Shown here: in pieces, positions 2,342 through 20,933 of the stretch | How the letters are laid out: each line of letters starts with the position of its first letter | Numbering within the stretch: the first letter of the stretch is position 1 | Source: an uncultured delta proteobacterium | GTDB taxonomy: Bacteria > Desulfobacterota > Desulfomonilia > Desulfomonilales > Desulfomonilaceae | Assembly: GCA_963789265.1 (NCBI GenBank) | Contig: CAWBKB010000001.1 | Span: forward strand, 448,001 to 512,000 | Direction: 5' to 3' | DNA length: 64,000 nt | Position numbers and translations under genes: made by a program | Notes under the pieces: model-generated | Told to the model about the DNA's origin: nothing | Database searches by the model: none | The model's input: only the letters and a program-made list of their open reading frames with translations

Positions 2342-4754
2342 ATGCTCGTCAGCGTGAACTGGCTGAAGGACTTCGTGGAAATCGATCGATCCGCTGAGGA
2401 GATCGCCGATCTTCTTACCATGGGAGGTATCGAGGTGGAGAGCGTGTCCCACGTGGGGCACGAACTTGAAACAGTATTTATTGGCAAGGTGGAAGAAACA
2501 AGTGCTCATCCGAAGTCCGAAAAGCTCAGTCTGGCGCGCATCAGTCTGAACGAGCGGGAGGTTACGGTTGTTTGTGGTGCCCCCAATCTACGCGCAGGCC
2601 AATTAGTCCCATACGCGGCTCCCGGTACTGTTCTCATATCCGGGCAGAAGATAGAAGAGACGGAAATCAAGGGCGAGCCTTCCTCGGGAATGCTTTGCTC
2701 GGAAAAAGAGTTGGGTTTGGGAGACGACGCGTCGGGCATTCTCGTTCTGGATGAATCTTGCAAACCCGGAATGTCTCTTACAAAAGCTTTTCCGCTCGTA
2801 AAAGATGCGATCTTGGAGATATCGGTCACGCCCAACCGCGGGGATTGCCTTTCGGTCCTCGGCGTTGCCCGAGAACTGGCGGCTCTCACAGGAGCCTCAT
2901 GGAAAGTTCCGGAGGTGCCTGTTGCAAAAGGGCCGGCCAGTGTCAAGAAGAGGATAATCATAGAAGTCCCGGACCCGGACCTCTGTCCGCGTTATGTGGC
3001 GACCATGGTTGAAGGCGTCAAGATCGGACCGTCTCCTCTGGAGATCCGTCTCAAACTGATCAGGGCAGGAGTACGTCCGATCTGCAATGTTGTGGATGCC
3101 ACAAATCTTGTTCTCATGGAATGCGGGCAACCGCTCCACGCGTTTGACTACGACCTGCTGGAAGACCGGCGGATCGTGGTGCGCCGCTGCAACCCTGGTG
3201 AGAGGTTCGTGACTCTGGATGGGGTCGAGAGGCGGCTGCCCGAGAATGCTCTGATGATCCGGGACGGCAAACGATCTGTGGCTCTCGCTGGAATCATGGG
3301 CGGGATGAATTCGGAGATTACAGAAAACACTTCCTGCGTGCTAATCGAGAGCGCCTGTTTCGAGAGGTTCGGCATCAGGCGAACTGCCAAGGCTCTGGGA
3401 ATGAGTACCGAAGCCTCATACAGGTTTGAACGAGGAATAGACCCCGAGGGCACGATCTGGGCTGCTCACCGGGTCGCACATCTTATCTGTCAATTGGCGG
3501 GAGGGACGGTTCTATCCGGCCGCGTCGATGTTTATCCTGCTCCCATTGTGAGGCCTCCAGTTTCTGTCAGACCAAACAAAGTGAACAGCCTGTTGGGTTT
3601 GAGCTTGAAGGACGAAGAGATTTCTTCCTATCTGATGAGGCTTGGAAATACCGTCAAACAAGCCGCTGGGATGAACGGAGAGATAGTGAGTGTTCCTCCT
3701 TCCTGGCGCTGGGATTTGGATAGAGAGGAGGACATGGCAGAAGAGGTGGCCCGGCTCCACGGTTTTCAAAATATACCCGTATCCATGCCCTGCTACAGAT
3801 CCGCCCCGGATAGGAGCGGTGAGAACTTGAACCGCATTCGACGGGTGAATACGTTATTGAACGCCTCCGGTTTCTCCGAGGTGATTACAATGTCCTTCGT
3901 ATCCGTGGACGCGGCACGTGAGTTCAGCACTAAGTCGGGAGACCCGGGAGAATTGATCCTAATCAATCCTCTAACGGAGGATTATGTTGCGATGCGGACT
4001 TCACTTATCCCAGGGATTCTGGCCGTGACGAAGCGAAACATAAATTTTCGTTCCGAGAATTTAAGGCTTTATGAAGTGGGTAAGACTTTTTCGCCGGTGC
4101 CTGGAGACGAACTCCCCAGAGAAGACCTGAGATTGGCAGGGATAGCTACGGGAGCGCGATACCCGGAACTCTGGAACCTTCCGCGCGATCAGGAAGTCGA
4201 TTTCTACGACGTGAAGGGGGTGCTGGAAAGCCTTTTGGAAGGCTTGGGTGTCCAGGAAGTGGTCTTCGTGCCATCGAATGTCCCCTTCCTGCATCCGGGC
4301 AAATCCGCGGACATGATCCTCGAGGGCGAGAAACATTGGTTTTCTGGGAGAGGTGGCACCCGCGAAAACTCGGGAATACGATTTGCCTGGAAGAACTCTC
4401 ATGTTTGAGGTTCTCCTGGAGCCTCTGTTCGTTCGGATGCGCAAGGAGAGAGTTTTCACGCCTATTCCTCGCTACCCTTATATAGAGAGGGATTTATCAT
4501 TCATCGTTGAAGAAAAAGTTTCAGGTGATATGATTAAACACTTGATTTCACGTTTGGCACATGATATTATTGCGTCCGTGATCCTATTCGATTTGTATCG
4601 AGGAAAATCCATTCCGGAGGGCTGCCAAAGTATGGCCTTTCGGGTCCGATATCAGGCAGAGGACCGCACTCTGACTGATGAGGAAGTCCAGGAGGTCCAT
4701 TCTCGTGTGGCGGACGCCCTTGTAAGGGAATTGGGCGCCACAATGAGGGAATGA
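2342..4754 (+). CDS. pheT: phenylalanine--tRNA ligase beta subunit (apparent +1 indel near 4331)
   Basis: VVCGAPN, SGMLCSEKELG, TPNRGDCLS, GQPLHAFD, ASYRFERG; C-terminal FDX-ACB domain (RDLSF..FDLYRG..DRTLTDEEV) in the 4353..4754 frame. Confidence 0.97.
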
Positions 4755-6386: not shown

Positions 6387-7904
6387 TCACGTGAGGCGGC
6401 TCGTCGCTCGGCTTCCTCTTTGGTCGCTCACGGGAAGGCAAATCGTGAAACAGGCCCCTTTTCCTGGTTCGCTTTCCACGTCAATAGTCCCACCGTGCTC
6501 CTTTATGAAGCCATAACATATACTTAGGCCTAGCCCCACGCCCTTTAAGACCTCTTTCTTGGTGGTAAAAAAAGCGTCAAAGACACGATCCAGGTTCTCT
6601 GGGGGTATTCCCACCCCTGTATCTTCTATCCTGATGGTTATATTATTGTTGGTGAAGTCCGCGCCGCTGGATACACGAAGTTGGCCTCCCGACTCCATAG
6701 CCGCATTGGCATTTATTATCATGTTGATAAGAACCTGCTTCAACTGGCTTTCAACAGCCATGATGTGGGGCAGATCAGGATTGAGATCCGTAAATACCTG
6801 TATGTTGAGGTTCATGAACTGCTTCTCGTAAAACAGTAAGGTCTCTTCGATGAGTCTGTTGACATCGGTGACAGCTCTTTTTTCATCGTCCGGTTTGAAA
6901 AACTTGAGCATCTTTATGAGAAGCACCGATGTCCGCTTACACTCGTCATAAGCCAGGTCCACAAACTTGCGCTTGTAATTGTCCCGGGGCACTGCATCTT
7001 TGATAAGTTCCAGGCAGTTCATGATGCCATAAATCGGATTATTCAATTCATGAGCCAATTGGGAAGCCATTTTACCCATCGCGGAAAGTCTCTCTGCCTG
7101 AATCAGTCGCTTCTGAAGACGGTTTCGCTCTGTGGTATCTCTCATGAGACCCTGATAACTCACGATCCGGTCGGAACTGTCCCGTCCAGCGTATCCGCTC
7201 ATGGAAACATCTCTTAATGTTCCGTCCTTACGTCTTATCCGTATTTCATAGTCCTTGACTACTCCCTGCTTGAGAAACTTTTTCCTGAAGTCCAACATCT
7301 CTTCCCGGCCCACGAACAGGTCTCGGTAGTAATTCATTGCCAGGAATTCCGCTTTCGTATAGCCGGTGATGTCGCACACGGCCTGGTTGCAGTTCGTTAC
7401 CGTCCCCGCTGCATCCGCTATAAACATTCCGTCCTGAATGTTTTCAAACAAGTCCCTGAACTTGATTTCGGTAGCGGCCAGTTGGTCGCTCATGAGTTTC
7501 TTTTCCGTGTGATCGACCACAAACCCGCGATATCCCTGAACCCGGCCCTGTTTGTCTTTCCATACATGGCTGGACAGGCTCACATACAAAGGACGTCCGT
7601 CCTTGCGTTTGAAAGTCGCTTCATAGTCCTGAACGTAGCCCTGCTCTTCAATTGTCTTCTGAAACCTGATCCGATCTTCGGGGTTCATCCAGAGATCTCT
7701 ATTGAGGTCCAGTGCCAGGCCCTCTTCCACCATGCTGTAGCCTAGCATCCCCACCAGGGCTTTGTTGCAATCCAAGAATCGCCCTTCGCGGGTGCTAATG
7801 TAAAAGCCGTCGCGGGCCTGCTGGAAGAAACCGATATAATTTCGCTGGATCTCCGTAATGCGGTCATCGATTTCGTCAGGGGTCATGTGGTAGACCGATT
7901 TCAT
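6387..7904 (-). CDS. PAS-PAS sensor histidine kinase
   Basis: two PAS domains, LAHELNNP H-box, DTGVGI, FFTTK, GVGLGLS; GGAGG RBS before MKSVYHM at 7904. Confidence 0.93.
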   Translation of the reverse strand: MKSVYHMTPDEIDDRITEIQRNYIGFFQQARDGFYISTREGRFLDCNKALVGMLGYSMVEEGLALDLNRDLWMNPEDRIRFQKTIEEQGYVQDYEATFKRKDGRPLYVSLSSHVWKDKQGRVQGYRGFVVDHTEKKLMSDQLAATEIKFRDLFENIQDGMFIADAAGTVTNCNQAVCDITGYTKAEFLAMNYYRDLFVGREEMLDFRKKFLKQGVVKDYEIRIRRKDGTLRDVSMSGYAGRDSSDRIVSYQGLMRDTTERNRLQKRLIQAERLSAMGKMASQLAHELNNPIYGIMNCLELIKDAVPRDNYKRKFVDLAYDECKRTSVLLIKMLKFFKPDDEKRAVTDVNRLIEETLLFYEKQFMNLNIQVFTDLNPDLPHIMAVESQLKQVLINMIINANAAMESGGQLRVSSGADFTNNNITIRIEDTGVGIPPENLDRVFDAFFTTKKEVLKGVGLGLSICYGFIKEHGGTIDVESEPGKGACFTICLPVSDQRGSRATSRLT

Positions 7905-12952: not shown

Positions 12953-13609
12953 TCACGGAGTATCGTTCGTAGGCAAAGCAGCATCGTCAACGAAAGGTCG
13001 AAATGGTCGCCTTATGACCCAGCGCTTCCCTCCCGCGGGCAGACGCCCTATCAAGTGACGTCCCAAATGTATTTGCAATTCCGAACCTCGCATGCTGCCA
13101 AACCGAACAATCCTTGTTGGCATAAGGGACAAAAGCCATGCACCCAATTTCTTCAGCAGACCCGACCCGGGAGTTGCAGGCCTGGCATATAATCTCCTGT
13201 CGATAAAGCTGCGCACGTTCATAATGCGGCCGATCGCCCGGCCCGCAAGGCCGCCGTATATTCTCCGCGACTCTTTCCCTCTGTGTGCTGATACTATTCG
13301 GCCTAAAATCCAACTTGGTTCCACGACGTACGGGTCGACAAGATTGTTGTTGTCTCCTCTGGTGAGTACTCCTTGAGCGTCGCTGGAAACCACCCGATGG
13401 ACTATCGCTTGCCCACCATCAGGATGAATGAACAAGATGACGTCTCCGCACCTAATCGTCCTGCCGTCATACGGGACTATATGGAGGATATCTGAAGCTC
13501 GGAATGTGGGATTCATGCTGGGACCGGCATAGAACATCCATTGCCCGGTTAGGAACCGAAGACAACTGACTTTGGCAGGCGCATGATCTGGCGAGCAATC
13601 CATATTCAA
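12953..13609 (-). CDS. S24/S26 signal-peptidase-like protein (candidate RiPP leader peptidase)
   Basis: GPSMNPT, GDVILF, IVHRVV, TRGDNN..DP; Ser-His type S26 motifs. Confidence 0.8.
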   Translation of the reverse strand: MNMDCSPDHAPAKVSCLRFLTGQWMFYAGPSMNPTFRASDILHIVPYDGRTIRCGDVILFIHPDGGQAIVHRVVSSDAQGVLTRGDNNNLVDPYVVEPSWILGRIVSAHRGKESRRIYGGLAGRAIGRIMNVRSFIDRRLYARPATPGSGLLKKLGAWLLSLMPTRIVRFGSMRGSELQIHLGRHLIGRLPAGGKRWVIRRPFRPFVDDAALPTNDTP

Positions 13610-13892: not shown

Positions 13893-14813
13893 CTATTTCC
13901 GATCCAATGCCTTCTCTATTCCTTCCCAGAAGCGACCGGTGAGGCTCGCTCGCAAAGTGAAGGTCGGCACGGCTTTGGCGAGATCGCACGAATTCGCAAA
14001 TAGCTTCAAATTGTTGTCTCTTTGCACGTCGTTTTCCGGACGTCGCCACATTCGCCCGCACACCTGACCTGCCGACTGGTTGATCCTTGCCGCGGCTCGG
14101 GCCTGGCCGATGCGGGCGACATCGTCGCTCTCGCCCTGGTCCAAGAAGAAAATCGCAGAAAGTGGAGTCGGTCTCTGCACGTTCCAAGTCTTCTCGGCCC
14201 TCCGAAAAAGGTAATCACTCCATGTCGGGAACGGATGTGCATGGTAAGATCCGGATGCCGAACGCACTACGAGTGTCTCGTCATCACATAAAACCTTCCA
14301 AGATTGGGGAACGCGTCGGCAGCACGTGCTCTTGCCTCGGCCTCCACTGGCCGCAATCAGAATTCCCTTACCGTCATGCTCGACCAAAGCCGCGTGGAGT
14401 GGCGTACCTCCCTGGTCGATTGCAGCCCGATAGAAGGGGAAAACCGCCTGCTGCATGGCCAGGATTGCCGGATCGTGATGCCCTATATCCAACAGTTCAC
14501 AAACCATGTCAGGTACGTCGGGATTGGACCAGATACGCAGTGCTAAGAGATCGTGCATCTTCCAACCGCTGTGCGGAAGAGCGGATGGCTTGGGTAACAG
14601 AGGGAGGGGATTGGCAGTTTGACAACGGCCGATTCCTTCACCGCATTTAACGATGCTTATTTTTCGGAGCCCATCTGACTTTCCCGGCCTCAAAGTCATG
14701 ATTGAAGCCAGTTGGTTCAGCCAGGCCGATGTACCGTTGCTCGCAACGAGGCGCCATGCAAGGCCGTCATTCAGATGGAGGATATAGGAGTTGTCACCAC
14801 ATGTTTTCTGCAT
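13893..14813 (-). CDS. scmC: SynChlorMet cassette ScmC-like protein (HPr-kinase-related P-loop protein)
   Basis: PLHAALVE..GILIAASGGRGKST..LCDDE..AHPFPTWS; located next to PqqD and two rSAM/SPASM genes. Confidence 0.75.
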   Translation of the reverse strand: MQKTCGDNSYILHLNDGLAWRLVASNGTSAWLNQLASIMTLRPGKSDGLRKISIVKCGEGIGRCQTANPLPLLPKPSALPHSGWKMHDLLALRIWSNPDVPDMVCELLDIGHHDPAILAMQQAVFPFYRAAIDQGGTPLHAALVEHDGKGILIAASGGRGKSTCCRRVPQSWKVLCDDETLVVRSASGSYHAHPFPTWSDYLFRRAEKTWNVQRPTPLSAIFFLDQGESDDVARIGQARAAARINQSAGQVCGRMWRRPENDVQRDNNLKLFANSCDLAKAVPTFTLRASLTGRFWEGIEKALDRK

Positions 14814-14874
14814 CAGTTATCTCAGCATCAAGCTTCTGTCAGTCGCTTTACGAGCTTGCTGACGAACTGGTTGA

Positions 14875-15081
14875 TTAGCCTCCATAAAAACCTGAAGAGC
14901 AATTCCTTGCGCCCCCACCATTCGGCTTACAGAATCCGCCCCCAGGAAACACTCCGTAATTCTTGCAAACCCCGGCATCCCCGCTCCCCAACGGGTTGCA
15001 AGCCCCTGAGGCGTACAGGTCATCCCGGTCGTCCATGTCCACTATCACGGGTTGGGTGTACGGAGGTCGCGAATTTTCCAT
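14875..15081 (-). CDS. candidate RiPP precursor peptide (68 aa, YxxP leader, Cys/Gly-rich core)
   Basis: GGAAGGA RBS; ATG overlaps the scmF TGA; MENSRPPYTQPVIVDMDDRDDLYASGA-CNPLGSGDAGV-CKNYGVFPGGGF-CKPNGGGARN-CSSGFYGG. Confidence 0.75.
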   Translation of the reverse strand: MENSRPPYTQPVIVDMDDRDDLYASGACNPLGSGDAGVCKNYGVFPGGGFCKPNGGGARNCSSGFYGG

Positions 15082-16220
15082 CAGCCGCATCCTTCCATAT
15101 TCTCCGGGCGATTTTGTCCCGGTGCAAAAAGCCGTGTCGTAGGAAACAGATCTCTCTTTGCAGCTTCCTCGCAGTACCAGTGTGGCGCCCAGAGGCTCTT
15201 GGAACGATAGAAATTCTGGGCCACACAGTTTCCGAGGCAGACACCCTTCATCAGGCAGTCACCGCATATTCCTTGCAGACGCCTCGGCAGGCCATTTCTC
15301 AGGTTTTGAAGAATAGGATTGTTGTTCCAAAGATCTTCCAACCGATCACGACCTGCGTGGCCGAAGACAAGCTCCGGCACGGTTTCTCCGATGCCGCAAA
15401 GCGCGTACGAACCATTACCGAGCACTCCAAGTATGCCCAATATGCCACATTGCCCGCCCCCGTCTCCTTGCTCTCCGAACATCTTGTTCAATGGACGAAA
15501 GGCCATGGGATGGCTGTAAAACAGCCTGAGCCTTGTTTTGGCAGAAAGTTCAGTCTCGACCCAGCGGCCCAGTTCCACTAGTTCGTCCATGGAGAGCGTC
15601 TCACCGGCCTCGTGCAGGCGTTCGCCTCGTGCCGTGGGCTGAACCATGTTGAACTTCACCGAGCCAGCGCCGAGCGACTCGGCCAGCCGAACCACTTGTT
15701 CCATCTGATCTCTGTTTCGGCGGATCAGAGACATTATCACTTGCGGTCTGATGCCTACGGCGACAAGATTCTTGATCCCGCTGAGGGCGGCATCGAAGCA
15801 TCCCCTAACCCCTCTCATCCATTCATGGGTTTGGGCATCCGAACCGTCCAGGCTCACCGAAACGGACGGGCCTTCACAAGCCTTTATCTTTGCAGCTAAT
15901 TCCGCGCTTAAAGCCACCCCGTTGGTTTCAATGGTGAGACTCAACTCCTGACAGCGGAGATAATCGAGGATTTCGCCTATTCGGGGGTGGATCAATGGCT
16001 CGCCGCCGGTTAATTTGACTGCGGAAAGACCCAGCAGTATGGCCTGATCTATGATGTGGAGAAACAACTCGAAATCAAGTGCAGTGGCTGATGCGCCTTC
16101 GCTCTGGTAGGTGGGTGCTATCCAGCAGTGGCGGCAACGGAGATTGCACTTTTCAGTCAGATAGAAGTAGAGTTGATTTAGAGGAAATTCGCGTTTAGTT
16201 GTCATAGGTTGAGCAGACAT
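15081..16220 (-). CDS. scmF: radical SAM/SPASM enzyme, SynChlorMet ScmF-like
   Basis: YFYLTEKCNLRCRHCWIAP, LTGGEP, SPASM Cys cluster CGDC-x5-C-x3-C. Confidence 0.85.
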   Translation of the reverse strand: MSAQPMTTKREFPLNQLYFYLTEKCNLRCRHCWIAPTYQSEGASATALDFELFLHIIDQAILLGLSAVKLTGGEPLIHPRIGEILDYLRCQELSLTIETNGVALSAELAAKIKACEGPSVSVSLDGSDAQTHEWMRGVRGCFDAALSGIKNLVAVGIRPQVIMSLIRRNRDQMEQVVRLAESLGAGSVKFNMVQPTARGERLHEAGETLSMDELVELGRWVETELSAKTRLRLFYSHPMAFRPLNKMFGEQGDGGGQCGILGILGVLGNGSYALCGIGETVPELVFGHAGRDRLEDLWNNNPILQNLRNGLPRRLQGICGDCLMKGVCLGNCVAQNFYRSKSLWAPHWYCEEAAKRDLFPTTRLFAPGQNRPENMEGCG

Positions 16221-16468
16221 AAGTTGGTAGGACAGGCATCCTGCCTGTCATTCCCAATCGACAGGCAGGATGCCCCTAGGCGTTAAAATAAGCTTCAAGT
16301 CCTCTTCGTCCCGGAGGGACGTGCTGATAATAGCCCGGCGATTTATCGCCGGGAATGAACCGCCAAGAGACTTTTCTTCGTCCCCGAGGGGCGCCCGAAG
16401 GATGCATCCTTCGGGCGCCCCTCGGGGACGAAGATTGAATCATTGCTTATCGGTCACCCGGCAATGAA

Positions 16469-18144
16469 GAGAGTGTCTCAAAACGGTTGTAGTGGCACGA
16501 TGACGACTCTCGGGGTGGTAGGGTGCGGTTAATCTCGCACCTTGGCCTCCCTTGTCTCCGACGAGCCGGGGCCGGCTATGAGTATGCCTCAGGCAGCCAT
16601 GAGTCACTCTCCGTCCTGATGTCTTAGGCCGCGGTTAGCACCAGACGCCCCGTCAGCCAATGGCTGTAGAGCTTCTTGAGATTCAAGGTGGCGCACATCA
16701 AAGACCATTGAGCCTTCGCATTGGATAATCCGGACACGGTCCACCGTCTAAAGTCCAAGTGGCTCTTTATCCATGCAAAGACCGGCTCAATGATCACCTT
16801 GCGGGCTCGGAGTAGCGTCTTGCTTTCCGGGACCTCCCGTTTCTTGCGGTGACGCTCAACTGCGTCACGATAGATGTTAATGTCTATGAGACGGCCATTC
16901 TTGCTCTTGCTGCACTTCCACCGTTCAGGACACGTCAAGTAGTCCCGGCATCGATACCGCCGGATCTCGTTTCCGTTTTTTCCTGTGACTTTCTTCTGAA
17001 GAAAGTTCAGCGATGCGCCTTGCGGACAAATACAGACGTCTCGCTCTTGGTCGTAGACGAACTGGGAAGCGTGATAAGGGTCCCATTGAGCGCCTTTTTC
17101 CGCAGCGGACTCTCCCGACGACTTGGCGACCAAGACCTCGTACTCCTTCTCTTCGGCCAACGCGATTTGAGCCGATGCGAAGTATCCTGCGTCCGCCACG
17201 GTTTCCTCTGCGGTTGCGCCCAAATTTTCCTGAACTCGATCCAGCATGGGAACAAGCTGCCCATTGTCATTGCCTTCGTCGACCACTTCCTCAGCCACAA
17301 TCATGCCGCTTTGTTGGTCTGCCACCGCTTGAGCATTGTAAGAGGGCTCAGTAGACCGCCGGTTCTTCATGTACCGGGCATCCGGCTCGCAGGGATGGAC
17401 GACCTTCTTGTCAGTCTTATCCAATTCCTGCAAGGCCTTCTGTATCCGCTCCTTGCGTTTCAACTCGTCCTGCAGGGCTTCGGGAAGACGCCATTCGCCA
17501 CCCTCCTCTTGCTCGCACCTCTCTGTCTCCGTCATGACGTCGGCAACGCACTTGTCCAAATTCTCAAGCATCCGCTCCAACTGATCTTGGTTCTTGAACT
17601 TCTCCCGAGATGATCCGACAGGGATCTTGGTTCCATCCAATGCATGAACCGCCATACCTATCAACTCGGCTTTGACTGCCACTTGAACCGATTGTTTGAA
17701 TATTCCCTTGAAAACCTTCTTGTTGTCCCTCCAGAATCGCCACAGGGTATTATGATCCGCTGCATTCATACCCGTCAGCCAAATCAATCCCATGTTCTCC
17801 ATGCATGCCTTCTCAAGCTTGCGCGATGACCTGATTCTGCTGAAATAGCCGTAGAGCCATGCCTTCAACAAAAGATCGGTACTATAGGGAGGACGGCCCG
17901 TTTCGCCATTCGGAACTCGAAAACCCAGCACCTCCAAATCCAAGGAATCCACAAAGTCTCCTATGAAGCGCGCTGGATGATCAGGCCCTATCCAGTCATC
18001 TATAGCGGGCGGAAGCAGAAACACCTGCTTGTAGTCGGCTCTGATTTGCGGCATAATCCTTTCCCTCTCCGATTCTCTTTTCACATCTCATTAGTAGAAT
18101 CGGTTGAGAATCGCGAGCCCAAAATCGACTTTTGAGACAGTTTC
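16469..18144 (-). mobile_element. IS1182-family insertion sequence (1676 bp)
   Basis: TIRs GAGAGTGTCTCAAAA / TTTTGAGACAGTTTC; TGAA duplication inside CCCGGCAA-TGAA-TTGCCGGG palindrome. Confidence 0.92.
16624..18054 (-). CDS. IS1182-family DDE transposase
   Basis: LLPPAIDDWIGPDHPARF, GRPPY..SSRKLE, LDGTKI, YNAQ, ADAGY, IEPVFAWIK; ORF intact. Confidence 0.95.
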   Translation of the reverse strand: MPQIRADYKQVFLLPPAIDDWIGPDHPARFIGDFVDSLDLEVLGFRVPNGETGRPPYSTDLLLKAWLYGYFSRIRSSRKLEKACMENMGLIWLTGMNAADHNTLWRFWRDNKKVFKGIFKQSVQVAVKAELIGMAVHALDGTKIPVGSSREKFKNQDQLERMLENLDKCVADVMTETERCEQEEGGEWRLPEALQDELKRKERIQKALQELDKTDKKVVHPCEPDARYMKNRRSTEPSYNAQAVADQQSGMIVAEEVVDEGNDNGQLVPMLDRVQENLGATAEETVADAGYFASAQIALAEEKEYEVLVAKSSGESAAEKGAQWDPYHASQFVYDQERDVCICPQGASLNFLQKKVTGKNGNEIRRYRCRDYLTCPERWKCSKSKNGRLIDINIYRDAVERHRKKREVPESKTLLRARKVIIEPVFAWIKSHLDFRRWTVSGLSNAKAQWSLMCATLNLKKLYSHWLTGRLVLTAA

Positions 18145-18212
18145 TGAATTGCCGGGCTACTATCATTGAGCCCCTACAGGGCTCACAGAGGGCAGGCTCG
18201 TTATTTTAACGC

Positions 18213-19392
18213 CTATGGGCAGGACGCCTGTCCCACCGTCAGGTTTCGTTCTCGCTGCCCGCATGTGTCATGGCTTAGCGATGTGGTGACCGGATCCTCA
18301 TTCGGGAGAACGCCACCGGCCTCCAGGAAACGTTTATAGCAGGAATCAGGGCTCGGATGATAGGCATGACCTGTCATAGAATCCGCCATTGCGGGACAAC
18401 CGCCTCTGCAAAAGGCCACATACTCGCACCCACGACAAAAATCAAAATCTGCAAGGTGGATGGATGATCGATCCCGAAAACGATTAAGTTCCTCGCTGTT
18501 CAGCCACACTTCAGCCACCGAGTCAACGTTGATTCGGCCTAGTTCAATGTTTGACAGTTGCACGCAAGGGACTATGACCCCATCCGCCCTCACCGCCAAT
18601 TTGGTCATCGGGCCGCCGCAGCTCGTCAATTGTCCTCCACCGGGCAGCCTCTTCAACCCCTTTTCCCGCGCGTGTTCTATGTCGAGCCATGCCTGCGCTT
18701 CAGCCAGCGGTCCAGCCGTGGCGCTGATGCGGTCACCATATTTCTGTGTGAGCTTCAAGAGGGAGTCCATAGCCAGACATCGCTCTTCAACGGTAAGCTG
18801 GACCTCATCGGTGTTTTTCCGGCACAATCCTAAATAACCGGCCGAGTTTGTTGAAAACCCGGGAAGGCCAACTACTTCCAGGAGCAACTTAGAGACTTTC
18901 TCCAGGTCCTTGACGTTTCGTCTGTGAATTGTAACTCGGACGGACGCGGGGAGTCGATGTTCAAGAAGCAGCCTGAGGCCCTCCACCGCGCGCCGAAAAC
19001 TTCCATCGCCTCTGAAGCTGTCATGGGTAATCGGCATCGAGCCGTCAACAGAGACCTGAATGAAATTGCATCGGCCTGTGGAAGCTAGAAAGGCCGCGAG
19101 TTCACGTGTGATCAGAGTGCCGTTGGTGAGGAGGGAGAACCGCATCCGATTCCGTACGATCCCGTTCACGATTTCCCTGAAATCTTCACGAATGAAAGCC
19201 TCGCCCCCTTGCAGGCAAACCTCCATCACAGAGCAATCACGCAATTCTTCGAAAAACTTTAGCCATTCTCCGGTCGGCAGGTCTTCTTTAACGTCGCTTC
19301 CGCTCGTGAAATGGCTGCAGGTACTTGCAGCGCAGATTGCACTTGCCGGTGATCTCGATATCGACAGATCGCGGCGTCCTCATAAGAGTCAT
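18213..19392 (-). CDS. scmE: radical SAM/SPASM enzyme, SynChlorMet ScmE-like (apparent +1 indel near 19320)
   Basis: MTLMRTPRSVDIEITGKCNLRCKY/CSHF restores CxxxCxxC across the shift; LQGGE; SPASM CRGCEYVAFCRGGCPA. Confidence 0.85.
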
Positions 19393-19399
19393 GTCAGTA

Positions 19400-19687
19400 T
19401 CAATTGGCTTCGACCTCGTAACCAACAAAGCCTCGTGCTGCGAGGCCCTGAACAAATTCTTTCAGATGCGCGCCGGCTTCTTCCGGAACGTTTTCGAATT
19501 GATCCTGTAACTCGAGAAGAATCTCGCCTTCGGTGTGATTTCCATCAAGGCGTTTCCAGATGAACACACTTACAGGGTTCAACCCGAGCACCTTGCCCGA
19601 ATCCGGGTCGAAGAGCAAGGCCCACTCGTCAAATTCCTCACGCAACACAGTCAAGGGATTGGCTATCGGCCTGTCCGCTTTCGACAT
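19400..19687 (-). CDS. scmD: PqqD-family peptide chaperone / RiPP recognition element, ScmD-like
   Basis: VLREEFDEWALLFDPDSGKVLGLNPVSVFIWKRLDG..FVQGLAARGFV; GGAGG RBS. Confidence 0.88.
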   Translation of the reverse strand: MSKADRPIANPLTVLREEFDEWALLFDPDSGKVLGLNPVSVFIWKRLDGNHTEGEILLELQDQFENVPEEAGAHLKEFVQGLAARGFVGYEVEAN

Positions 19688-19846
19688 GGAGTCAGTTGCC
19701 TCCACCGCGCAACGAGGATACCCGCGAAAGAGAGGGATTAACCAAATGATAACATTAGAAATCTTTTAAATCAAGCCGGGCTTGCCGCAGGCAGTAACGA
19801 ATCAGCACACCAGTAACATCTTCCCGAATACATTGGCTGGAAAAAA

Positions 19847-20347: not shown

Positions 20348-20933
20348 TCAAGCCCCGCTAGTACAAGCCTGCGGGGATGACCCCCAAGAGCTGTAACCCT
20401 GATAATAATTAGGAGTACCCCAGTACCCGTGTCCGGGCCTGATAGGGATTCGAGTAATAGCCAGTTTGAGGCCACTGGTTGTATCCTCGTCGGACAGCCG
20501 GCCGAGGCTGAGCCGCGTAGGCCGGCGGGTACTGCCTTGCGACGGGTCTTTGTTGCCACTGATTCGCCCTATGCACACGAGCACTCTTGACAGTCTTCCT
20601 TCTCAACTTTCTCTTGGAGGACGGCTTGATTTGCCGGTTTGCTGTGGAGTTCGGGAGGGTGGCCTGATAAGTCCCTCGCGGAGCGACCGTCTGTTGAGCA
20701 ACGAAGGGCTGTCGCGGAGCCACGGGCCTTACGGTGTAAGGCGTCGAGCCGCTATTTTGAACTTTCCCATTGTATTGCGGCGCACCCGAGTTCGTCGCAT
20801 TGTACGTGTACGTCTGAGTATACTGCGAGTTGTATCCCGGCTGAATGTCAAGCGCGGTTGCTTGCGGGTTGCACAGTGGAAACAGCAGCATCGTGGCGGA
20901 TGCAGCGATGAGCAATATCGTTTTTGATTTCAT
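20348..20933 (-). CDS. secreted Q/Y/P-rich low-complexity protein (stop at 20409 as given; possible indel extends it to 20348)
   Basis: AGGAGG RBS, signal peptide MKSKTILLIAASATMLLFPLC; an alternative frame continues the Tyr/Gly-rich composition. Confidence 0.65.

Follow-up and report, generated by a model that had tools for sequence, protein, structure and literature searches.

A probable divergent ScmA-type precursor peptide gene in a SynChlorMet cassette of an uncultured Desulfomonilaceae bacterium

Radical S-adenosylmethionine (rSAM) enzymes with a SPASM domain that act on Cys-rich cores typically give thioethers, and freyrasin contains repeated CX3D units, of which the one-Cys repeats considered here are reminiscent. 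For the SynChlorMet (SCM) system, a precursor model exists in NCBIfam, TIGR04252 ('SCM_precur_ScmA, SynChlorMet cassette protein ScmA'), which spans 49 positions and has its cut-off at 35 bits. No publication on this system was found in the literature searched, and the searched passages of PMC10288494 and PMC10114670 do not mention it. Linear polyphosphorylated peptides (LPP), described in 2026, are a related case of peptides that are synthesized ribosomally and modified post-translationally (RiPPs). According to the paper on their clusters, a [Y/W]xxPx[L/V/I/F/A] leader motif is recognized by discrete lasso-type RiPP recognition elements (RREs), and YxxP is essential for the binding of LppB to LppA (PMC13381572). 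According to the same source, experiments showed that the HprK-like LppK polyphosphorylates Ser3 of the core and that the leader is removed by LppS, which resembles signal peptidase I (SpI) of the SipW type and is inefficient on the unphosphorylated precursor (PMC13381572). In this study, a stretch of 64,000 nucleotides from an uncultured delta proteobacterium of the family Desulfomonilaceae (GenBank assembly GCA_963789265.1, contig CAWBKB010000001.1, positions 448,001 to 512,000; hereafter the window) was analyzed, and the short open reading frame (ORF) at 14875..15081 was compared with these systems. The ORF lies on the minus strand, the initial annotation having given no strand for it, and there is good reason to regard it as the gene for the ScmA-type precursor peptide of an SCM RiPP cassette.

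The gene was defined by its translation, by syntenic homologues and by a family hidden Markov model (HMM) as follows.

14875..15081, minus strand: probable scmA-type precursor peptide gene, 68 aa

The peptide begins with MENSRPPYTQPVIVDM, followed by an acidic stretch (D15–D21). The leader comprises approximately residues 1–27 and carries the motif Y8-x-x-P11-x-I13-V-D-M (Y8-T-Q-P11-V-I13), and the core begins at C28 and consists of four Cys/Gly units: CNPLG, CKNYG, CKPNG and CSSG. The four Cys residues (28, 39, 51 and 61) are separated by 11, 12 and 10 residues, and the peptide contains 14 Gly residues. The A of the ATG (15081–15079) is also the last base of the scmF TGA stop (15083–15081), and GGAAGGA is located at 15096–15090, 8 nt upstream. 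The initial annotation had described this 68-aa ORF with its TGATG overlap, its GGAAGGA ribosome-binding site, its four units with a spacing of 10–12 residues and its 14 Gly residues, and the sequence agrees with each of these points. If translation began at a second in-frame ATG, at 15090, the peptide would have 71 aa; however, the shorter start is favored because the related locus L001 has an in-frame TAA immediately 5' of its scmA ATG and because four independently called database proteins (P0002–P0005) begin with MENS. A 289-aa ORF on the plus strand (14712–15581) runs antisense to scmA and to the 3' part of scmF, and is most likely a spurious frame opposite well supported genes.

The ORF is a real gene. 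Both its sequence and its position have been kept, and its product is a member of a large family of peptides with a [Y/W]-x-x-P-x-[L/I/V]-[V/I]-D-[L/M] leader and a core built of single-Cys repeats of about 10–12 residues, in which Gly stands 3 or 4 positions after each Cys. The family HMM, the seeds of which include the close relatives P0004–P0006 of the window peptide, was run on all six-frame ORFs of at least 35 aa in the 6.06-Mb genome. Two matches were obtained, the ORF in the window (E = 6e-11) and an orphan paralogue on contig 3 (E = 7.5e-10), the next value being 0.098. The window peptide scored 45.1 bits, which was reached by none of 1000 shuffled sequences (maximum 12.7 bits), and shuffling the core alone or the leader alone approximately halved the score (means of 17.3 and 20.3, respectively). 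Over 28 codons compared with L001, six synonymous and six non-synonymous changes were counted, and synonymous codon changes were observed at conserved leader residues relative to both L001 and L003. Furthermore, twelve loci with relatives of ScmF were taken from one-genome-per-species contigs of other genomes, and an ORF combining such a leader with Cys repeats was present in ten of them, directly downstream of scmF in nine; the initial annotation had suggested looking for small ORFs of this kind beside ScmE/ScmF homologues. No such ORF was found in two of the twelve loci (L002 and L007), the precursor ORF of L008 lies on the opposite strand upstream of scmD, and the copy in L011 is frameshifted. 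In the alignment of these peptides (A1), the leaders follow the pattern [Y/W]-x-x-P-x-[L/I]-[V/I/K]-[D/N]-[L/M/I], and the Cys residues are retained in cores that are otherwise free to vary, with P11, C28 and C51 invariant. A chance ORF is excluded for practical purposes.

The extent of the family was determined by searching the profile of A1 against 1.84 billion cluster representatives (clusters at 50% identity), which gave 402 protein clusters at E ≤ 1e-3 and eight at E ≤ 1e-10. Examination covered 151 sequences, 144 of which have at most 170 aa and contain [YWF]xxP. The leader logo is K-x-K-Y(90%)-E-K-P(100%)-x-L-[V/I]-D-L, and the first Cys follows the leader Tyr by 18–20 residues in 100 of the 144 members. 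Successive Cys residues are most commonly 10 (302 cases) or 11 (224 cases) residues apart (526/731). Position C+3 is Gly in 78% and C+6 is Ala in 44%. The usual number of Cys residues is 4–6, and the cores occur in two sizes, one with 4–8 Cys and a long form of about 120–140 aa with 12–16 Cys. The window peptide falls within this frame, with 20 residues from Y8 to C28 and the Cys spacings given above, and is atypical in that three of the four units place Gly at C+4, the Ala at C+6 is mostly missing and the core is unusually Gly-rich. A search of the Protein Atlas returned unnamed hypothetical clusters only. In a reverse test, the back-translated leader pattern was applied to genome contigs and located 13 loci, of which seven encode Cys-repeat peptides; four of the seven have Scm homologues within 7 kb and one is cut by a contig end. 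At three further loci found by the pattern, the same leader precedes different cores. The 25 loci with genomic context belong to Desulfobacterota-like metagenome-assembled genomes (MAGs), Chlorobiaceae, Saganbacteria, Methanocella and Methanothrix.

One of these three loci, L037 (Thermotogae-labelled), contains at 6995–7268 two tandem 37-aa ORFs with the leader M-F-K-Y-E-K-P-V-L-I-D-L and a one-Cys core, adjoining a different rSAM/SPASM gene with 28% identity to ScmF. The occurrence of such leaders on other cores indicates that this leader type is common to several RiPP classes.

The relation to the catalogued ScmA has to be considered separately, as the concept of this precursor is already held in NCBIfam and what is new is a divergent form that escapes the curated model. 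The claim of an easily missed precursor was therefore correct in that the gene is genuine and passes undetected by TIGR04252, but the precursor as such cannot be called unknown. When 36 family members were scanned with TIGR04252, 14 gave below-threshold matches, the best at 26.2 bits, and the alignments begin at the leader Tyr. Above its cut-off, there was no match in 401 genomes sampled from the phylum or in five other cassette-bearing genomes, and only one of the 81 genomes of the Chlorobiaceae group, the family of the genome containing L005, gave a match (87.2 bits, locus L057). The gene order at L057 is scmE-scmF-scmA-scmD-scmC-S26, so that the 87.2-bit ScmA is encoded directly downstream of scmF, in the same slot as the ORF in the window. 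The family HMM scores this protein at 28.2 bits, compared with the shuffle maximum of 12.7 bits, and a database search with it returned three unnamed proteins. The TIGR04252 model is narrow. Judged by position, architecture and transitive homology, the ORF in the window is classed here as a divergent ScmA; it fails the curated score test. It resembles the catalogued type in belonging to a cassette with ScmC, ScmD, ScmE and ScmF all above cut-off, and in having an aromatic-x-x-P leader, a first Cys about 18–20 residues further on and C-x-x-G repeats; it differs in the same three respects in which it is atypical of the family.

The surrounding genes, all on the minus strand, are arranged in the order scmD, scmE, IS1182, scmF, scmA, scmC and S26 peptidase, and the cassette is identified as SCM because ScmC, ScmD, ScmE and ScmF all exceed their NCBIfam equivalog cut-offs.

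19400..19705, minus strand: scmD, discrete PqqD-family peptide chaperone (RRE), 101 aa; TIGR04248 at 123.3 bits (cut-off 100), PF05402 at E = 8e-16, alignment A3
18213..19392, minus strand: scmE, radical SAM/SPASM enzyme; TIGR04250 at 482.5 bits (cut-off 400), profile positions 47–358 only
16277..18215, minus strand: IS1182-family insertion sequence at the scmE/scmF junction; NF033551 at 363 bits, terminal inverted repeats
15081..16220, minus strand: scmF, radical SAM/SPASM enzyme, 379 aa; TIGR04251 at 591.7 bits (cut-off 400)
13893..14813, minus strand: scmC, HprK/PEPCK-like P-loop protein, 306 aa; TIGR04249 at 318.3 bits (cut-off 125)
12953..13609, minus strand: archaeal/SipW-type S26 signal peptidase I homologue; TIGR02228 at 54.3 bits (cut-off 51.85)

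Discrete RRE/PqqD proteins bind leaders of the [Y/W]xxPx[L/I/V] type found in the scmA product, and the cassette has a gene for such a protein, ScmD, in keeping with the statement in the initial annotation that RRE/PqqD domains bind YxxP-type leaders. The ScmF sequence has CNLRCRHC (residue 25) and a SPASM motif, CGDCLMKGVCLGNC (residue 319), the counterpart of which in ScmE is CRGCEYVAFCRGGC. An RRE domain would not fit at the N-terminus of either enzyme, and the stand-alone ScmD is therefore the only peptide-recognition element of the cassette. ScmC is only distantly HprK-like by sequence: HprK_rel_A matches at 30 bits (cut-off 200) on the P-loop region, there is no Pfam HprK match and a PDB sequence search gave nothing. 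In the ScmC alignment (A4), G160, K161 and T163 of the P-loop GxGKST are invariant and S162 is nearly so, and the pair D177/D178 is conserved. The AlphaFold2 model of ScmC (pLDDT 85.9) gave phosphoenolpyruvate (PEP) carboxykinases as the best PDB matches in Foldseek (E = 2e-8, TM-score of about 0.5), a fold class that we take to be common with HPr kinase. The S26 homologue keeps the SMNPT, HRV and GDN motifs; its maximum 19-residue Kyte-Doolittle hydropathy mean is 0.95 and it has no membrane anchor, so that it is a soluble peptidase rather than a membrane signal peptidase. An S26 gene also follows scmC in L001, L003, L004, L006, L009, L010, L012, L036, L042 and L057. A scan for promoters and terminators found them no more often than chance would predict, and nothing here is based on it.

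Some further features were noted at the edge of this cassette and in related ones. Upstream of scmD, a Q/Y/P-rich ORF of 174 aa with a hydrophobic N-terminus (20409–20933, minus strand) matches no family and has conserved counterparts in L001 and L003, with 69% and 49% identity, respectively. In the Chlorobiaceae-labelled cassette L005, there are two near-identical precursor genes (4505–4705 and 6461–6661) and two copies of scmF. The long-core cassettes L006, L012, L036 and L042 encode precursors of 115–138 aa with 14–16 Cys residues, including CC and CxC pairs, and have an additional gene between scmE and scmF for a protein of about 560 aa, the N-terminal half of which resembles the putative glycosyltransferases LA_3751/LA_3752 (83–90 bits, below cut-off). 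A second copy of scmC is present in L036 and L042.

From these assignments, a course of biosynthesis can be proposed. By family knowledge, ScmD would bind the Y8..P11..I13 portion of the leader and present the core to ScmE and ScmF, which would cross-link the core once per Cys repeat, giving up to four small rings in this peptide. The initial annotation likewise proposed the peptide as the substrate of both rSAM enzymes, with repeated small macrocycles as the outcome, but overlooked ScmC and the S26 peptidase. Each Cys is regarded as a reactant because one invariant Cys occurs per repeat at a fixed spacing. By analogy with other SPASM enzymes, the chances are about even that the bond made by ScmE and ScmF is a thioether between Cys-S and a carbon atom. 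Since ScmD, the S26 homologue and the kinase-like ScmC would match three of the five conserved core genes of the LPP clusters, phosphorylation and S26-type leader removal are likely to be additional steps of the SCM pathway. ScmC might phosphorylate Ser in the core, for which S33 in the G-S-G-D of the first repeat is a candidate; across the ScmA family, the residue next to the conserved Gly on its C-terminal side is Ser in 61% of first repeats and in 26% of later ones. The soluble archaeal-type S26 peptidase may, by analogy, cut the leader near the clade-conserved L-Y-A-S-G-A just before C28.

The state of the cassette in this particular genome needs separate description. The IS1182 element has terminal inverted repeats at 16277–16291 and 18201–18215 and a transposase ORF (16624–18084) in the same orientation as the cassette; neither L001 nor L003 has the element, and in both of them scmE and scmF abut. 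In the genome, 16 tblastn matches to the transposase exceed 90% identity across more than 400 aa. The end of the element is bridged into scmE by a contig from a public run, which may be that of the source sample, and the run-contig depth is about 52 over the element compared with 3–5 over its flanks. The last approximately 21 residues and the stop of the listed scmE ORF extend beyond the end of L001 ScmE into intergenic sequence beside the element, with the stop falling within the inverted repeat. As the element parts scmD–scmE from scmF–scmA–scmC, expression of the whole set is uncertain. A GC-rich near-palindromic intergenic sequence adjoins the element.

In addition, a single surplus base at about 19320 splits scmE in this assembly, in the region of the third Cys codon of CxxxCxxC. 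The same one-base defect occurs in L001 (at about 4960) and L003 (at about 4875), at a position that differs between window/L001 and L003, whereas the motif is intact in the more distant loci L005, L006, L008, L011 and L012. Metagenome contigs were retrieved with a degenerate scmE pattern that permits either a 3-nt or a 4-nt spacing, and all eight carry the in-frame 3-nt form; four of them are close relatives with 79–81% nucleotide identity, each of which aligns to the scmE of the window with exactly one gap. Alignment with L001 and L003, judged by eye, gave synonymous-dominated change in both scmE segments, each in its own frame. The short contigs from the public run are patchy, and showed no indel row at about 19320, where coverage of that base is uncertain. 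Owing to the eight in-frame contigs and the single gap in each of the four relatives, the extra base is most likely to be an assembly artefact of the window, L001 and L003 MAGs. A methylation-linked error at CTGCAG was considered as its origin and was not supported genome-wide, the frameshift signature being found at 18 of 798 CTGCAG sites (2.26%) compared with 487 of 20,000 random sites (2.44%). Programmed +1 frameshifting was also rejected in view of the differing positions of the extra base, the absence of a slippery or hungry-codon context and the in-frame form of all eight contigs. As a separate observation, CAGCTG is strongly under-represented genome-wide (45 sites compared with 617–1440 for ten other palindromic hexamers), which may point to a restriction-modification system of that specificity.

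Several observations weigh against the assignment of the ORF as scmA or against the chemistry proposed for its product. The window peptide, in both the 68-aa and the 71-aa form, gave no match to TIGR04252 even at E ≤ 10, and compared directly with the 87-bit ScmA it is only weakly similar (BLASTP E = 0.14; hhalign probability 60%, confined to the repeats). Among the seven Cys-repeat peptides located with the leader pattern, two lack any Scm gene within 7 kb. Similarly, the orphan paralogue, which lies outside the window, is an ScmA-like ORF of 66 aa (G000:C3:365858-366064; locus L013 1498-1698, minus strand) with the leader P-Q-Y-Q-K-P-E-I-I-E-F, three Cys repeats and 25.5 bits on TIGR04252; it has no Scm gene within 1.5 kb, and the genome contains no second ScmC or ScmD. 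S25 is not conserved, being replaced by Ala in the close relatives P0003 and P0004, and repeats 2 and 3 of the peptide are without Ser or Thr. Neither rSAM enzyme reaches the cut-off of a characterized sacti- or ranthipeptide maturase family in NCBIfam: ScmE scores 65.5 against PapB (cut-off 340) and 64.9 against StsB (cut-off 625), and ScmF scores 89 against StsB (cut-off 625) and 76.3 against AlbA (cut-off 850). The solved structures nearest to ScmF by sequence, BlsE, PqqE, SkfB and SuiB, belong to enzymes with different reactions. Finally, the IS1182 insertion and the apparent scmE frameshift could mean that the pathway is inactive in this genome.

The low scores against the maturase models bear on whether ScmE and ScmF make thioethers at all. 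An SCM precursor could instead acquire C–C or C–O cross-links, epimerized residues or converted Cys, or its Cys could have another role. This fits with ScmE and ScmF being equivalog families of their own, with two of the nearest structures, PqqE and SuiB, forming C–C bonds and BlsE being a decarboxylase, alongside SkfB, and with the conservation of Gly at C+3 and Ala at C+6, which is as strong as expected for reaction sites. However, one invariant and evenly spaced Cys per repeat is the pattern expected of Cys as a reactant, as in the CX3D units of freyrasin and PapB, and the usual products of SPASM enzymes on Cys-rich cores are thioethers; this alternative is regarded as unlikely, although it deserves the most weight among those discussed. 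A decidedly improbable alternative is an LPP-like phosphorylated linear peptide, defined by ScmC and the S26 peptidase, with its Cys residues in disulfides or metal binding and the rSAM enzymes reduced to minor tailoring. The RRE, the HprK-like protein and the archaeal-type SpI would account for three of the five LPP core genes and the leader motif is common to both (PMC13381572), and the enrichment of Ser after the first-repeat Gly would also fit. On the other hand, scmE and scmF are the most conserved genes of the cassette, with scmF adjoining the peptide gene in nine of the ten peptide-bearing loci, and two LPP-type genes and the distal part of the LPP leader are missing, as detailed below; the absence of a Pfam HprK match in ScmC argues in the same direction.

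The remaining alternatives concern the gene itself and its surroundings. The cassette could be a decaying relic in this genome, with an intact peptide gene and no mature product, in line with an insertion sequence at the scmE/scmF junction that is bridged by the run contig and has 16 copies in the genome, and with an scmE whose reading shifts frame at the third rSAM-motif Cys. Nevertheless, the element is intergenic, has the orientation of the cassette and leaves the ORFs uninterrupted, except that the scmE stop is replaced, and the extra base is probably an artefact, being confined to three MAG assemblies (two MFD-named, all assumed to be long-read) and absent from every metagenome contig retrieved; together with the synonymous-dominated change in scmE, this makes a relic improbable. 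The ORF might also be an untranslated chance frame in a G+C-rich intergenic stretch, being short and compositionally simple, without a Pfam or NCBIfam match and overlapped by the 289-aa antisense ORF. The probability of this is very small indeed, given that the amino acids are conserved while codons change synonymously, that the HMM score greatly exceeds those of shuffled sequences, that the position is conserved across bacterial and archaeal loci, and that the ORFs of the relatives come from several independent collections. An ScmA-type precursor of the SCM cassette thus remains the preferred description of the product.

For the window alone, this is an improvement of annotation rather than a discovery: pipelines that rely on TIGR04252 would leave scmA unannotated, and the cassette would seem to lack a substrate. 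The wider interest lies in the size and regularity of an uncharacterized family and in the link of SCM to kinase and peptidase machinery of the LPP type. The family comprises 402 clusters or more at 50% identity and so greatly exceeds in size what the curated model suggests, and SCM appears as a RiPP pathway that employs two rSAM enzymes and is widespread among anaerobic bacteria and archaea, for which no biochemical study was found in the literature searched. The definition of the family by its leader logo, its Cys period of 10–11 residues and Gly at C+3, together with the two core sizes and the LPP link, makes the SCM system experimentally approachable.

Compared with the LPP clusters, the SCM cassette would share the three core genes named above and adds two rSAM/SPASM enzymes and a Cys-repeat core; the main text of PMC13381572 contains no mention of radical SAM. 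The NTP-transferase and MsbA-like exporter of the LPP type were not found between the flanking methionine aminopeptidase (MetAP) gene and the 174-aa ORF upstream of scmD. Of the LPP leader consensus YxxPxVLxHQxIxFETxxS (PMC13381572), the window peptide has the YxxPx[V/I] part only, without VLxHQxIxFETxxS, and ScmC is only distantly HprK-like. The sacti- and ranthipeptide systems (subtilosin/AlbA, freyrasin/PapB and SCIFF) likewise have an rSAM/SPASM enzyme with CX2CX5CX3C encoded beside a small Cys-bearing precursor; SCM differs in having two distinct maturases and a stand-alone, rather than fused, RRE, and its thioether is a prediction. In the PqqA/PqqD/PqqE system, a discrete PqqD chaperone similarly delivers a small peptide to an rSAM/SPASM enzyme, and ScmD matches PqqD models and ScmF matches PqqE; however, PqqA is cross-linked at a single Glu-Tyr site and is devoid of Cys repeats, and its product is a cofactor. 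The bond type or ring topology of SCM peptides could differ from those of the known sacti- and ranthipeptides. Tentatively, and with somewhat less than even confidence, SCM peptides may be considered a hybrid RiPP class in which an LPP-type module is combined with two dedicated rSAM/SPASM enzymes to give a phosphorylated and multiply cross-linked C-x-x-G-x-x-A ladder with repeats of about ten residues.

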